The position numbers were made by a program, and so were the translations under genes. Shown piece by piece: positions 27 to 5,156 of a stretch of 41,507 bases of DNA. The notes beneath the pieces are model-generated. The model made no database searches, had not been told where the DNA came from, and saw nothing but the letters and a program-made list of their open reading frames with translations. The DNA is taken from positions 1 to 41,507 of the forward strand of contig JACZTA010000002.1 in the NCBI GenBank assembly GCA_022573915.1. Direction: 5' to 3'. Source of the DNA: Bacteroidota bacterium (GTDB taxonomy: Bacteria; Bacteroidota; Bacteroidia; Chitinophagales; JACZTA01). Position 1 is the stretch's first letter; every line of letters begins with the position of its first letter.

Positions 27-767
27 TTAGACGAAATATAGTAAATTTTCAGCCACAAACCGCAAACCAATCGGTAAAATAAAACTGCCTGATATCAACC
101 CATTTTCTATTTCAAGTATTCTTTTCGTGATATGATATCCAGTTTCATCATCTTTCAAACGGCTGCATATTGATCGGTATAAGTATGCATTTCGCTCTAT
201 CTTGATTACCCCAAAGTTTTCCTCAATTTCTTTAATCATTTCCTTGCCCGAATGCAACGGTGGTTCGTGAGAATGATCTTCTTGCCATGCTTTAAGGGGA
301 TCTTTGATATATTCTGAAAACTTCTCTTCCCGAATGATTGCGGAAAGGATTGAAATCGTATCATAATACCATCGTGTTGTATTTAGATCCACCATTTCAC
401 GATCAAAATCTTCAATGATTAGTTTACCCCCTTTTTTCAGTAATAATTTTGTATGATGCAAAGTTTTTTTAAGATTGTGAATGTGATGAAGTGAGCGCGT
501 AAATAGGATGATGTCAAACGGATCGTCTTTAAATGATAAAAAATCAAGGTGCTTGGCAGGCACACCTTTTTTTATAGCTAATTCAACTGCTTTTGCATCT
601 GTATCCAACGCGGTGAGGGCTATACCAGTTTTTAGTAGCTCATATCCGAGATCACCAGAACCAAAGCCAACCTCAAGAATTCGTAAATCCTTATTTGTAA
701 TAAATTTTTGAACATAGTTGAGAGTTTCTTCATTGAAAACATTAATTTTTGATTTGACCCTTTTCAT
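27..767 (-). CDS. class I SAM-dependent methyltransferase
   Basis: 246-aa ORF. It has the Rossmann motif I 'ILEVGFGSGDLG' followed by the acidic 'ALDTD', and 'KKGGKLIIEDF' typical of Methyltransf_11/25-type enzymes. Confidence 0.8.
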   Translation of the reverse strand: MKRVKSKINVFNEETLNYVQKFITNKDLRILEVGFGSGDLGYELLKTGIALTALDTDAKAVELAIKKGVPAKHLDFLSFKDDPFDIILFTRSLHHIHNLKKTLHHTKLLLKKGGKLIIEDFDREMVDLNTTRWYYDTISILSAIIREEKFSEYIKDPLKAWQEDHSHEPPLHSGKEMIKEIEENFGVIKIERNAYLYRSICSRLKDDETGYHITKRILEIENGLISGSFILPIGLRFVAENLLYFV

Positions 768-1209: not shown

Positions 1210-3453
1210 TTACAACTTAGGCAATACCCTCTCAAGTTGGTTTCTGAATTGAAACTTCAAATCAGCAATATTTTTGTAGATCGTTCTAAAATGCCCCAAG
1301 TCATCTAGTTTTTTCCTGAAATCTAACAGGCTTTTAATTTCATCTGTTATTTCTTCTGTATTTATTGGAGCATCTTTAAAGTAGGTATAAACCAAAGGCT
1401 TCCCTGTTTTTTTAAATTGACCAAAGGCTGTTTCAAATTCCTCTGCGGTGTACTTACCCACTTTGGTAAAGAACAGGCTTACAAAGATATCTGATTGCTT
1501 CACTACATTATTGTATTCATCTTGTAACCGCGTCTTTGACATCGCATCGATGAAATTTTCCCAAAGTTCCAGTTTTAAGAAAATACCTTCTTCGTAGAGC
1601 CGCTGATTCTCACGGTTAATGAAGATTTCAAATTGCTCTCTGTCTGCCTTAAGTTCTGAGGAAGAGGCCAGAAATATTTTGATGTTTTTTTGCGTTCCCT
1701 GCCGATCTTTGCTTGTAGAATACCCATTCAGGATATCGGTAACAGGAAGATCCTCATCTAACTCATCGTGGTACATTGGTTTGTTTTTTTCTTCCCGATT
1801 AATGAGTTGTAAATAGTCCAACCAATGTTCTTTATAGAGCACCTCCTGCTTGATTGTCATCTCCGGAAATGGCTCATGGAGCCTGCGAAAGGTTTCCCGG
1901 ATGGCATAGAGATAGCTGCGGCTCTCGCCTTTTGTTCCACTTACTTCAACATGAATATAGTTCTTGCGAAAAGTCTGGTAGACTTTTGCCCGGCATGAAC
2001 CATTGGAAATTAGCACACCACTGCGCCATCGATTATCAGCCAGGATGTCCAGGTGCATTTCGACAATAAACCGGGTGATAAATGCATCCGGTGGGAAATC
2101 GTCATAGTTGTAGCGAAAATGCATGGATTTCTTGCTGTCCCATTCAAAATCGGGCTCGATGTCGACAAAAAGATCCGGAATGAAATAAATATCCTGTTGG
2201 TCTTTTGCCCCATAGCAAAGATTGAACTTTTGCATGAGGTTTAAAAGGAAAACATGCCTCGGTTTTGGAAATCGATCACCGGGAAGAATGTCTTCCAGAT
2301 CGTTAATATCCAGGCGGCCCTTATTTTTATCTTTCACAATGGGGTCATTAATGATGGCATAGACGCCATCCATGATCCATTGCGGATTGATCACATTGGT
2401 ATCGATTAGCCGCGGGTCATCCACAAAACTGACCACCGCGCCAATCATGCTGAGCAGTTTCAGGTTGCTTTTACGCTCCTCTGCGGGAAGGTCTTTGATA
2501 AATTCGAGATCTTCATATTCCTGGTAGGTGATAAAATCAGTCCCTTCCGCTTCCAGCTTCTCCAATTGTTCTTTAACCGTAAACCACTCACGCGGGCGCT
2601 GTTCAAAGACACCCGGCATTAGTTTCTTATCACTTACAATTGATGTTATTTTCTTTTTTAGAAGATCGATGGAATCAACGGCTTTAGTATCCTCACAATC
2701 ATGGATACTGGTGCGGACAAAGCCAATGATATTCGGGTAATCGCGCTCAAGGCTTTTTCGATCCAGATCGTGTGGATCCAGGTCTATTTTATTAATGACC
2801 ACCAGAACCGGCGCTTTGTTCCCTAACTGATTGGCCAGCTTGAGCCAATGATTGAGCTCATTTCGTTCCCTGCGGGCAAGTGTAACCAATACGTACAGGG
2901 TTCGCTCCGAGAAAAAAAACTGGTGTGTGCTGCGCATAAATTCCTGCCCGCCAAGATCCCATATATTGAGGCGGATATCCTTGTCTTTATAGGGAATTTT
3001 GATCTGACTGCGCTCTATTCCATGTGTGGTTGTTATATCTCTCTCAATCTCTCCTTTTCTGAGGTATTCAATCAAATGGGTTTTGCCATAATTGCTTTCG
3101 CCGATAAAAATGACTTTGGCTTCATGTATGGGCTGCAAGGTTCCGGCTTTTTGCGCCCTTTGCCATTTGAGTATTTCCTGGATTTGTTCTTTTGGGGGTA
3201 ACTCAAATATTTCAGCGCCGACCTTAAATTGATTGTTATACAAACTAAGCGAGGTCAGATTACTCAGCTTTGAAAAACTCTCCGGCAGGCTGCTCAATTG
3301 ATTGTTTTCTAAATCAAGCATTGTCAGGTTACTCAGCTCACGGATCTCTTTTGGAAGTTTTCTTAGTTGTAATCGCCGCAAATCCAGTCTCTTCGAATTC
3401 TCTTGTTTGGCCTCCTGAATGATCCGCAATGCTTTTTGGTAGTTTTTATCCAT
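1210..3453 (-). CDS. ROCO-family protein: LRR, Roc (Ras-of-complex) GTPase, COR, and a C-terminal TIR/DUF4062-like domain
   Basis: 747 aa. LRRs lie at aa ~22-75 ('LSNLTMLDLENNQLSSLPESFSKLSNLTSLSLYNNQF'). The GTPase motifs are the P-loop 'GESNYGKT' (aa 118-125), switch II 'DLGGQE' (166-171) and 'NKID' (221-224). COR-like motifs include 'REWFTVKEQLE', 'NPQWIMDGVYAIIND' and 'YFIPDLF' (aa ~280-545). The C-terminal aa ~590-700 read 'KIFLASSSELKADRE...SDIFVSLFFTKVGKYTAEEFETA...GKPLVYTYFK'. Confidence 0.8.
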   Translation of the reverse strand: MDKNYQKALRIIQEAKQENSKRLDLRRLQLRKLPKEIRELSNLTMLDLENNQLSSLPESFSKLSNLTSLSLYNNQFKVGAEIFELPPKEQIQEILKWQRAQKAGTLQPIHEAKVIFIGESNYGKTHLIEYLRKGEIERDITTTHGIERSQIKIPYKDKDIRLNIWDLGGQEFMRSTHQFFFSERTLYVLVTLARRERNELNHWLKLANQLGNKAPVLVVINKIDLDPHDLDRKSLERDYPNIIGFVRTSIHDCEDTKAVDSIDLLKKKITSIVSDKKLMPGVFEQRPREWFTVKEQLEKLEAEGTDFITYQEYEDLEFIKDLPAEERKSNLKLLSMIGAVVSFVDDPRLIDTNVINPQWIMDGVYAIINDPIVKDKNKGRLDINDLEDILPGDRFPKPRHVFLLNLMQKFNLCYGAKDQQDIYFIPDLFVDIEPDFEWDSKKSMHFRYNYDDFPPDAFITRFIVEMHLDILADNRWRSGVLISNGSCRAKVYQTFRKNYIHVEVSGTKGESRSYLYAIRETFRRLHEPFPEMTIKQEVLYKEHWLDYLQLINREEKNKPMYHDELDEDLPVTDILNGYSTSKDRQGTQKNIKIFLASSSELKADREQFEIFINRENQRLYEEGIFLKLELWENFIDAMSKTRLQDEYNNVVKQSDIFVSLFFTKVGKYTAEEFETAFGQFKKTGKPLVYTYFKDAPINTEEITDEIKSLLDFRKKLDDLGHFRTIYKNIADLKFQFRNQLERVLPKL

Positions 3454-3613: not shown

Positions 3614-4486
3614 TTAAAATTTGGTAAGTTTTCTTGTTTCTTTGGTCATGTAATCCATAATATAAACCTCAGATTTACCCTCTTTTGCCATAACGAATAG
3701 GATCTCGCGCTGATCCAGCGTCAGCGTATATCATTTGGCGAAAAAGAGGGCAGCATCACATCTTTAAATCCATTTGTCACTTGCTCAACTTTTAAATGTT
3801 CTAAGTCCAGAATATAGAAATCTTGAGAATCGTCAGTATGGTTCGTATAAATAAGTTTGTTTAACTTATTCATCATTGCAGGAGCAACTTGATTTGTATT
3901 GCTTGCAAAGATTCTTACCACATCCGAGCCATCATTTTTCATTCTGAAAAGTTGGTAACTTCCTGATCTTTTGGAGTTGAAATAGATATGCTTGCCATCT
4001 TTGCACCAACTTGGACGAAAAATCATTTGCAGCGTTATTTGTTAAATTTTTGATATTGCCGCCATCAGAGTTCATAATACATAGTTCCCTGGTACCTTTA
4101 AGACGACATTCAAATGTGATTAAACGACCTGAAGGTGAAAATGCACCAGCCCCCAACCTTCCATCCGTATGGGTTAACTTTTTGATTTCAGCGGTTTGTA
4201 AAGTATATTCATAAAGCTGGGAACTGCCATCTCTATTTGAATTGAACAGAATTTTATTTCCATCCGGGGACCATGAAGGTTCACTGTCACCGTTGTCATT
4301 AACAGTGATTTGTCTCATATTAGTACCATCTCTATTGATTGTGTAAATTTCGAAGTCTCCATCATTATTTGAATAAAAAACAATTCTGCTGCCGTCGGGA
4401 GACCATTTTGGGCCGTAACTATTTACCTTTGTCTGCGACAATGTCAGATTTGGAAATAACAAGATTATAAATATTAACTTTTTCAT
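3614..4486 (-). pseudogene. TolB-like PD40 beta-propeller repeat protein, frameshifted
   Basis: A signal peptide 'MKKLIFIILLFPNLTLSQ' starts at 4486. Repeated 'SPDG..I.F.SNRDG..ElY' blades follow. The reading frame breaks at ~4020-4030, where an extra T in a T-run separates 'NNAANDF' from 'RPSWCKDGKHIYFNSKRSG'. It breaks again near 3721, with a final blade 'LDQREILFVMAKEGKSEVYIMD' in a third frame ending at 3614. Confidence 0.6.
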
Positions 4487-4787
4487 GCAGGGGCTTCTTA
4501 AAATTTTGTTGACCTCTTTGAAGTTCTTTGAGTTCTTTCTTCGCCTTATCCAGTAAACCACTCAAATTCCAGCCAATGTCGACTATTTTGCGGAAATAAC
4601 GCTTCGCCAGCTCACGATTTTCCTGTTTGTAGTATTCTCCTGTTAAAGCAAGCGCTTCAACCCAAAACCAGGCTCTTGAATTGTAGTTATCAACATCTGC
4701 GATTCTCTTGTAATATTCTACGGCCTGTGCTTTTTTGATCTTGTGATTGTAATAATTGCCCAGGTATAAATTGGTGTACGGGTCCAA
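4419..4787 (-). pseudogene. TPR-like repeat protein fragment, probably 5'-truncated
   Basis: TPR-like helices 'AQAVEYYKRIADVDNYNSRAWFWVEALALTGEYYKQENRELAKRYFRKI'. No ATG is present, only a TTG at 4787. The open frame continues upstream into the oppositely oriented neuC fragment. The 3' end overlaps the TolB-like signal peptide region. Confidence 0.35.
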
Positions 4788-4808
4788 GCGGTTTTCTGCA
4801 AGAAGCTT

Positions 4809-5156
4809 TTGTCCCAGGTTTTCAATTATTTTATCAACTTCGACCCGGAGGACTATGCGGCGGTTTTGAACAATGCTAAATGTTGCGTTGGAAATTCTTC
4901 TTCCTTTATCCGGGAGGGTGGGTATTTAGGCGTACCGGCTGTTATGATTGGAGACCGGCAAGAGGGCCGGGAGCATGGAGAAAACGTTGTTTATTGCGGA
5001 TATAGTGGAACGGAAATAACCGAAGCCGTTTCACTTCAATCCTCGCACAAGAGGTTTGAATCGAGTAAAAAATATGGAGCAGGTAAAAGTGGAACGAAGA
5101 TAGCTGAGATACTTGTAAGTATTGATCTTGATTTTCGTAAGATGATTACCTATTAA
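4809..5156 (+). pseudogene. neuC: 3' fragment of UDP-GlcNAc 2-epimerase (hydrolysing), NeuC-like; the N-terminal ~2/3 is missing
   Basis: Only ~115 aa remain. 'VGNSSSFIREGGYLGVPAVMIGDRQEGRE' matches the conserved NeuC C-terminal block (GNSSSGiiEap...P.vNIGdRQkGR). No upstream N-terminal epimerase sequence exists, and the fragment abuts a minus-strand TPR fragment. Confidence 0.65.

Follow-up and report, generated by a model that had tools for sequence, protein, structure and literature searches.

The locus described here raises the question of what a bacterial ROCO protein, with leucine-rich repeats (LRRs) at one end and a compact, enzyme-like module at the other, might be doing for its host, and in particular whether it could act as an immune receptor encoded by a single gene. 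The gene lies at positions 1210-3453 of a 41,507-nt stretch of the Bacteroidota contig JACZTA010000002.1 (the whole stretch is referred to below as the window), which holds one ROCO gene and one copy of the C-terminal module. An initial annotation, made from the DNA itself, had described an LRR-Roc-COR protein fused to a TIR/DUF4062-like effector. Our analysis confirmed that the gene encodes a bona fide ROCO protein, in which a Roc (Ras-of-complex) G domain is followed by COR-A and COR-B, and we give somewhat better than even chances to the view that it combines a sensor, a GTPase switch and an NAD(P)+/nucleotide N-glycosidase to bring about abortive infection.

The open reading frame (ORF) is intact, and its Pfam matches to LRR_8/LRR_4, Roc, COR-A and COR-B all exceed the curated thresholds (Table 1). 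The G1 (GESNYGKT, residues 118-125), G3 (DLGGQE, 166-171) and G4 (NKID, 221-224) motifs stand at the residues first assigned to them and, together with switch I (TTTHGIE), are essentially invariant across 106 homologs. Over residues 19-586, phmmer aligned the protein with the solved prokaryotic Roc-COR chains 4wnr ('Leucine-rich-repeat protein'; 8e-58) and 3dpu/6hlu/8r4b ('Rab family protein'; ~1e-38), and the search of PDB chains also returned LRRK2 (4e-19 over residues 21-438). The solved proteins, which we take to be Methanosarcina barkeri Roco2 (4wnr) and Chlorobium tepidum Roco (3dpu/6hlu/8r4b), have the same LRR-Roc-COR-A-COR-B core, but the alignment to them ends at about residue 586, leaving the module uncovered. 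In solved ROCO proteins COR-B is the part of COR that mediates dimerisation; the COR region, originally drawn at residues ~280-545, is indeed present but extends to about residue 577. The same core is also found in LRRK2, LRRK1 and DAPK1, in which the effector is a protein kinase, whereas a deoxyribohydrolase (DrHyd)/DUF4062-like N-glycosidase is predicted here. Domain-profile searches identified the Ras-like Roc GTPase as the sole NTPase of the protein and gave no STAND match; the protein may work in an NLR-like manner, but not as a member of the STAND/NLR-type NTPases.

Table 1. Coordinates of the ROCO gene and its parts within the window (aa, amino-acid residues).
Feature	Position	Strand	Basis or remark
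Whole ORF, LRR-Roc-COR-A-COR-B-DrHyd/DUF4062-like module	1210..3453	-	Intact, 747 aa, ATG start
N-cap helix, three 23-residue LRRs and LRR C-cap (NQFKVGAEI..LPPKEQIQEILKWQRAQ), aa 1-107; putative ligand sensor	3133..3453	-	Pfam LRR_8/LRR_4 at aa 21-76
Roc (Ras-of-complex) GTPase domain, aa 108-280	2614..3132	-	Pfam Roc at aa 113-224, 1e-25
COR-A, aa 287-429	2167..2595	-	Pfam PF16095, 3.8e-31, full-length 1-143/143
COR-B, aa 442-577	1723..2130	-	Pfam PF25497, 4.1e-20; aligned with 3dpu/6hlu up to aa 584
Short polar linker between COR-B and C-terminal module, aa 578-588	1690..1722	-	Sequence reading; gap between COR-B and module matches
C-terminal (beta-alpha)5 module, aa 589-747; putative N-glycosidase (NADase) effector	1213..1689	-	AlphaFold2 model, weak profile matches
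E672 codon, predicted catalytic Glu in motif Y668-T669-A-E671-E672-F673	1438..1440	-	Conservation and DUF4062 alignment
K124 codon (P-loop of Roc)	3082-3084	-	

The putative sensor is the most variable part of the protein. The repeats, first counted as three or more, are N-terminal as described but number exactly three, each of 23 residues, and are flanked by an N-cap helix and a C-terminal LRR cap that are typical of the family. Among the homologs inspected the window allele is the shortest complete variant; LRR counts range from 3 to ~15 with a period of exactly 23 residues, and this stepwise variation produces a ladder of homolog protein lengths. Within the set of close homologs the LRR region is the least conserved, at 35-65% identity versus 70-90% for the remaining protein. 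An N-terminal truncation of the ORF was ruled out by the presence of the N-cap helix and by the absence of further LRR-coding sequence from the 270 bases upstream; because those bases hold no LRR code, we consider the ORF complete and of minimal length rather than truncated.

The C-terminal unit is likewise real, although what had been taken for a beta-alpha-beta unit of ~110 residues is a (beta-alpha)5 domain of ~160 residues. The AlphaFold2 model of this module (pLDDT 90.4, pTM 0.86) is five-stranded, with the order E-H-E-H-E-H-E-H-E-H. When searched in isolation against Pfam, the window segment matches NPHP3 (0.004), TIR_2 (0.038) and DUF4062 (0.058), all below threshold, and nothing else. 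These sub-threshold matches recur throughout the family, with TIR_2 in 54 of 62 members, DUF4062 in 53 (counted at E<0.1) and NPHP3 in 42, and no competing fold family appears. The best scores for single members were 1.3e-6 for TIR_2, 8.7e-5 for DUF4062 and 3e-6 for NPHP3, the last of these, in one family member, being nearly end-to-end (profile positions 4-154 of 160). PF25022 spans the DUF4062-type domain of human NPHP3 (preprint 10.64898/2026.05.01.722283). The TIR_2 score of the protein P0242 (23.6 bits) is still sub-threshold, and none of the family-member matches inspected reached the DUF4062 threshold. For the window module itself, no Pfam, NCBIfam or PDB sequence match was above threshold, and a search of PDB sequences with the module profile gave spurious ferritin/Dps matches alone.

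Structural and profile comparisons point in the same direction. Foldseek against the PDB returned the CMP N-glycosidase BcmB, nucleoside 2'-deoxyribosyltransferases (NDTs) and the RPS4 TIR domain among its matches, and in a fold search of BFVD the named matches were mostly NDT-type proteins, which made up about 12 of the top 50 and reached a TMq of 0.73, alongside one CMP hydrolase and two TIR proteins. When a profile of 338 module sequences was compared with one of 121 canonical DUF4062 domains, hhalign gave P=0.005 (score 24), as against 0.55 for reversed DUF4062, 0.23 for Roc and 0.36 for DUF4062 versus Roc as controls. A comparison with a single DUF4062 sequence aligned the wrong region (probability 0.3), and global mode gave nothing useful for the module and DUF4062. 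In addition, RefSeq names WP_235112701.1, which is 61% identical to the window module over 162 residues, a 'DUF4062 domain-containing protein', and positions 3-167 of the 906-position PADLOC profile PDC-S60 match the module at 1.6e-11. The module is all that the protein has in common with this PADLOC candidate, the remainder of PDC-S60 being unmatched, and a literature search found no paper on PDC-S60. From these several weak but agreeing lines we conclude, in keeping with the initial annotation, that the module belongs to the TIR/DrHyd (NDT-like)/DUF4062 superfamily. Since it misses every Pfam threshold, it is counted here as a distinct, highly conserved sister family, outside the threshold-passing PF13271 or PF13676.

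A candidate active site emerges from residue conservation across the 338 module sequences. Three acidic residues had been singled out as conserved, and all three exist; E672 (337/338) and E671 (332/338) are nearly invariant, but E674 is variable (236/338). The hhalign register sets D655, Y668, T669, E672, F673 and A676 on D62, Y83, T84, E87, Y88 and A91 of DUF4062, so that Y668-T669-A-E-E672-F673 pairs with Y83-T84-H-L-E87-Y88 of the canonical profile and E672 coincides with the Glu in the 'SYT..E-Y' motif of DUF4062. In the DUF4062 protein Eva01, E87 is the putative catalytic Glu (preprint 10.64898/2026.06.25.731849). E672 is accordingly placed where a catalytic glutamate would be expected, and we predict that it serves as one. 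The invariant polar residues are many (R605, N616, W631, E632, Q644, E646, Y647, D655, T669, E672, K693 and H721), which suggests that the module is an enzyme rather than an adaptor. F594 (in IFLASS) is kept in 334 of 337 sequences, at a distance from the Glu that matches F11 of Eva01; it lies outside the hhalign local alignment, and the Pfam DUF4062 match begins in its region (profile position 1 being module residue 8). The segment RLQ644-D-E646-Y is on the helix equivalent to that bearing the DUF4062 Q/W/E motif, 2-4 residues ahead of the aligned block and in an ambiguous register, and the module also has a separate W631-E632 motif, which reads QWE in some members.

As reported for KpSwz (E97) of Swarozyc, DUF4062 domains act as NADases on which phage defence depends, and the human protein TEP1 (E1008) is active as well (preprint 10.64898/2026.05.01.722283); the DUF4062 NADase Eva01 (E87) of Evangelion likewise functions in phage defence (preprint 10.64898/2026.06.25.731849). 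The module has the same five-stranded beta/alpha fold class as these 'NIR' NADases and similarly occupies an effector position beside sensor or NTPase domains. With Eva01 it further shares the 'YT..E-aromatic' motif (T669, E672, F673), and F594 is a candidate counterpart of the N-terminal aromatic, the F-to-E spacing being 78 residues versus 76 in Eva01. It differs, however, in having E-F rather than E-Y, in its own invariant W631-E632, Y647 and H721, and in scoring below the DUF4062, NPHP3 and TIR_2 thresholds. The surroundings differ too, as the DUF4062 systems use an HTH-type AUX domain or NACHT-WD40, whereas the window protein uses LRRs and Roc-COR.

The module is widely used: when 1.84 billion representatives were searched exhaustively with HMMER, 6,315 clusters matched at E<=1e-3, and 868 of them reached E<=1e-30. 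In Roc-COR, NB-ARC, NACHT, nSTAND3 and AAA_16 proteins that bear an array of TPRs or LRRs, it takes the place of the effector; it is fused elsewhere to FGE-sulfatase, GUN4 and DUF1508 domains, and occurs very frequently as stand-alone proteins of ~207 residues, some with EAD9 or EAD11 adaptor domains. These partners are those expected of an effector module in NLR-like conflict systems. An offline search found no weak second module copies in multi-domain proteins, and the phage collection contained no module homolog. One multi-domain protein, P0250 (671 aa), combines a pair of related, putatively NADase-type domains with a domain of the porphyrin-binding type: a canonical DUF4062 (9-91; 7.6e-35) is followed by a coiled coil, the module (250-408) and GUN4 (526-655). 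Stand-alone module proteins (hundreds, e.g. P0140, P0200, P0205 and P0227) have in common a conserved C-terminal tail with the motifs LDKLA.(S/T)GFIE(F/L) and then H(I/V)SHSKNV(V/A)(A/T)G(S/T), to which longer copies add GGG(N/D)FTIGD or GGNVTIGD; this tail may be an adaptor or a polymerising segment.

The ROCO protein itself has 1,804 homologs. Members of the close set are 70-90% identical in Roc, COR-A, COR-B and the module, and for Roc-COR this level holds across at least five phyla. Homologs that are 67-83% identical occur in anammox Planctomycetota, Sedimentisphaerales, Neomarinimicrobiota, Calditrichia, SAR324 and many Bacteroidota, and one 99%-identical fragment is from a KSB1 bacterium. 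Among close relatives the C-terminal slot is exchanged for other domains: some with a 75-87% identical Roc carry, in place of the module, EAD11 or an unannotated Cys/His-rich domain of ~200 residues. P0119 presents the converse, with a module that is 66% identical but a Roc-COR that is merely 31-41% identical. Distant ROCO relatives were found on cyanobacterial, Haliscomenobacter and Spirosoma plasmids. On the conjugative plasmid pMB06 (MOBF, MPF_T) of Acaryochloris sp. 'Moss Beach' the architecture is distributed over three neighbouring genes of the same orientation (L041, 3232-6023), one for the LRRs, one for Roc-COR and one for a 205-aa 'DUF4062 domain-containing protein' that is 61% identical to the window module. 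Patchy spread across phyla, LRR variation, slot swapping and NLR-type fusions are hallmarks of conflict systems rather than of core regulators. The ~200-aa replacement domain, seen in P0060, P0074, P0075, P0080, P0087 and P0098 (Roc 74-87% identical), has no Pfam match; it features conserved Cys and His residues and the motifs YPNIFTLKP, LQLYCSH..CLHPVG, RAYEPR.AT and W.C..H, and its AlphaFold2 model is of low confidence (pLDDT 55.7).

Genomic neighbourhoods were compared for 19 loci (the window and 18 others; 171 locus pairs). No neighbour gene of the ROCO gene is conserved among them; a neighbour homolog is common to just 7 of the 171 pairs, and true synteny exists solely between two Dokdonia genomes. 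The 133 nearest neighbour proteins, mostly metabolic or envelope-related, fall into 171 Pfam families, none of which occurs more than three times, and the PADLOC matches among them come from a handful of proteins, mostly helicases. The expectation that homologs would lack housekeeping synteny was thus borne out, but location in defence islands had to be dropped as a general property of the family, TIR/NLR-type neighbours being sporadic only. As there is no conserved neighbour and the neighbourhoods are ordinary, we conclude that the ROCO family is a mobile single-gene unit that is not consistently found in defence islands. Each of the computational checks that the initial annotation had proposed, from profile and fold searches of the module to these neighbourhoods, came out favourably, some of them weakly.

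The idea that such proteins serve immunity is not new. A computational study has already catalogued this family as LRR+AP-GTPase+COR+DrHyd and predicted a role for it in anti-virus immunity, describing rapidly evolving N-terminal LRRs, COR and a choice of no fewer than 24 C-terminal effectors, TIR and DrHyd among them (Kaur et al., 2021; PMC8195603). The source data of that study (Figure 6-source data 1) include NOQ25006.1 and MBC8374880.1, which correspond to our homologs P0007 and P0015 and are 77% and 79% identical to the window protein, respectively. The window protein therefore belongs to a family predicted in 2021; the fast-evolving LRRs and variable C-terminal slot of AP-GTPase conflict systems are found in it, its homologs are in the catalogue, and the logic of LRR, AP-GTPase-COR and variable effector is the same. 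What sets it apart is that its allele has just three LRRs, and the published work is purely computational. The novelty implied by the initial annotation was accordingly overstated, although its statement that Roc-COR proteins with such an effector lacked experimental characterisation still appears to be true of the literature. DrHyd is the deoxyribohydrolase/NDT-like branch of the TIR-DrHyd-SLOG clade and, in conflict systems, is predicted to be an NADase or a generator of ADP-ribose (ADPr) signals (PMC9503650, from the same group as Kaur et al.).

Taken together with these precedents, our results fit a single-polypeptide, cytosolic, NLR-like receptor in which a Roc GTPase and a COR dimerisation domain would stand in place of the STAND ATPase. 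The LRR solenoid would bind an invader-derived ligand, and binding would shift both the nucleotide state of Roc-COR and its COR-mediated monomer/dimer or higher-order state, a step proposed by analogy with Chlorobium tepidum Roco and LRRK2. The C-terminal DrHyd/DUF4062-like modules would thereby be brought into a catalytically competent assembly, as proposed here because TIR and DUF4062 NADases are activated by oligomerisation. With E672 as the catalytic residue, the module would then cleave NAD(P)+, or possibly another nucleotide, at its N-glycosidic bond, and depletion of the substrate would abort the infection. STAND defence proteins such as Avs and bNACHT likewise unite a repeat sensor, an NTPase switch and an effector in a single gene, and the module itself is fused to NB-ARC, NACHT, nSTAND3 and AAA_16. 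In the window protein, however, a Ras-like (TRAFAC) GTPase plus COR dimeriser is found instead of a STAND ATPase, and the order is reversed, with the sensor N-terminal and the effector C-terminal, whereas the effector of STAND proteins is N-terminal.

Several observations weigh against this reading. The tie of the module to DUF4062 and TIR is weak at the sequence level, as every Pfam match is under the gathering threshold; the window module scores 14.0 bits against a cut-off of 24.7 for DUF4062 (PF13271) and 14.9 against 28 for TIR_2. The HHalign probability is merely 7%, over an alignment of 47 columns, and Foldseek discriminates poorly, returning Ras-like and flavodoxin-like folds at a similar TM of 0.4-0.5. 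Modules from proteins of very different architecture and from distant phyla are 57-66% identical, which is unusually conserved for an immune effector, and the 70-90% identity of Roc-COR over at least five phyla is likewise unusually high for a presumed receptor. Neither the substrate (NAD+ or other nucleotides) nor the 'on' nucleotide state of Roc can be inferred from sequence, and we found no experimental study of any Roc-COR-based defence protein in the literature. Association with defence genes is sporadic, with TIR_2 proteins near three loci (3 of the 133 neighbours), and in the window the ROCO gene adjoins a polysaccharide cluster. Finally, the three-LRR allele may be a contracted, possibly non-sensing variant.

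The alternative that fares best retains the same sensor and switch, but has the module act on (d)NMPs, (d)NTPs, nucleosides or nucleic-acid bases, as a deoxyribohydrolase/NDT-type enzyme, instead of on NAD+. The label given by Kaur et al. is DrHyd and not TIR, DrHyd is stated to act on a broader spectrum of nucleotides (PMC9503650), and the best named fold matches are to BcmB and the nucleoside 2'-deoxyribosyltransferases; the E-F motif in place of the DUF4062 E-Y and the module's own invariant W631-E632 and H721 would also be in keeping with a different substrate. On the other hand, its closest characterised sequence relatives, the DUF4062 and NPHP3-type domains, are NADases, and the authors of the DrHyd assignment predict that DrHyd domains of conflict systems are NADase equivalents (PMC9503650). 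We think this alternative unlikely. A comparably low likelihood attaches to a broader suggestion, that the family could provide the first immune receptor gated by a small GTPase (Roc-COR) to be amenable to experiment, with a built-in enzymatic read-out, and that its DUF4062-sister module might perform chemistry beyond plain NAD+ hydrolysis, with a new product or substrate.

A non-immune role is, in our estimation, quite unlikely. Here the protein would be a ROCO regulator, exerting stress or developmental control over NAD or nucleotide pools, or its module would be a nucleotide-binding sensor, and the mostly non-defence genes around the homologs and the extreme conservation of module and Roc-COR, which resembles housekeeping-level constraint, could be read in this way. 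We also know of no established physiological function for prokaryotic Roco proteins. A regulator of this kind is hard to reconcile with a patchy distribution across phyla at 70-83% identity, with an LRR copy number that varies and an effector slot that is swapped, or with a module that occurs in NACHT, NB-ARC and nSTAND fusions and has a match in a PADLOC candidate.

It seems more doubtful still that the module is a signal generator, making a cyclic or modified ADP-ribose messenger that activates a separate effector in the manner of Thoeris-type TIR proteins. ADPr-derived messengers are known or predicted products of TIR and DrHyd domains (PMC9503650), and the frequent ~207-aa stand-alone copies and EAD fusions indicate that the module can work in multi-component systems; yet no gene is conserved beside the ROCO gene in the 19 loci, and the characterised DUF4062 enzymes yield plain ADPr and nicotinamide (preprint 10.64898/2026.05.01.722283). 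That the module is instead a non-catalytic homotypic adaptor, which like the TIR domains of animal adaptors would recruit stand-alone module proteins, is highly improbable, for although such copies are abundant and very high conservation would fit a precise homotypic interface, the Glu at the catalytic position and the polar residue cluster are invariant, and no second module gene occurs in the window or beside the homologs.

If the preferred reading of a GTPase-gated N-glycosidase receptor is correct, bacteria would have, in a Ras-like GTPase paired with a COR dimeriser, a way of gating a suicide enzyme other than by STAND ATPases. Prokaryotic Roco proteins, long used as structural models for the Parkinson's disease kinase LRRK2, would gain a physiological function, and the fused NADase-type domain would offer a natural and easily assayed reporter of Roc-COR activation, whether GTP state, dimerisation or binding of a ligand to the LRRs. 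Furthermore, because current Pfam models miss this family of 6,315 module clusters, it is under-counted in the annotation of defence systems. The finding is nevertheless a second derivation of a family known from a computational prediction of 2021, and the biochemistry of its effector superfamily was worked out in 2026; we therefore regard its interest as moderate, and as resting mainly on Roc-COR immune receptors having been predicted only and on the enzyme as a convenient ROCO read-out.

The remaining genes of the window complete the picture. Downstream of the ROCO gene lie a TfoX_N-like gene (819-1163) and a gene for a class I S-adenosylmethionine-dependent methyltransferase (27-767, minus strand), which had been left as either accessory or unrelated. 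Neither recurs at the 18 other loci, so they are taken to be unrelated and were rejected as accessories. The methyltransferase matches PADLOC mad2 at 7e-13, which probably reflects generic methyltransferase similarity. Directly upstream is a gene for a PD40/TolB-like beta-propeller protein (3615-4561, minus strand), which is broken by two frame changes into pieces at 3932-4561 and 3721-4026 and a terminal piece ending near 3615, and is either a pseudogene or the product of an assembly error.

The ROCO gene stands at the edge of an O-antigen/exopolysaccharide-type surface-polysaccharide cluster (5180-34624), which encodes a cytidylyltransferase, several GT4 glycosyltransferases, a UDP-GlcNAc 2-epimerase, GDSL-like acylhydrolases, a polysaccharide deacetylase, three paralogous ArnT-like PMT_2 glycosyltransferases, a Wzy-type ligase/polymerase and an initiating Glycos_transf_4 protein. 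Beyond it follow housekeeping genes for MetK, 2-oxoacid dehydrogenase E1 and ribosomal protein L25. Between the ROCO segment and the cluster, a 115-aa ORF (4809-5156, plus strand) corresponds to the C-terminal ~100 residues (269-380) of hydrolysing UDP-sugar 2-epimerases (4zht, 7e-13; 5xvs, 3e-11), and the position of this 3' epimerase remnant at the boundary suggests an insertion or rearrangement junction near 4790-4809.

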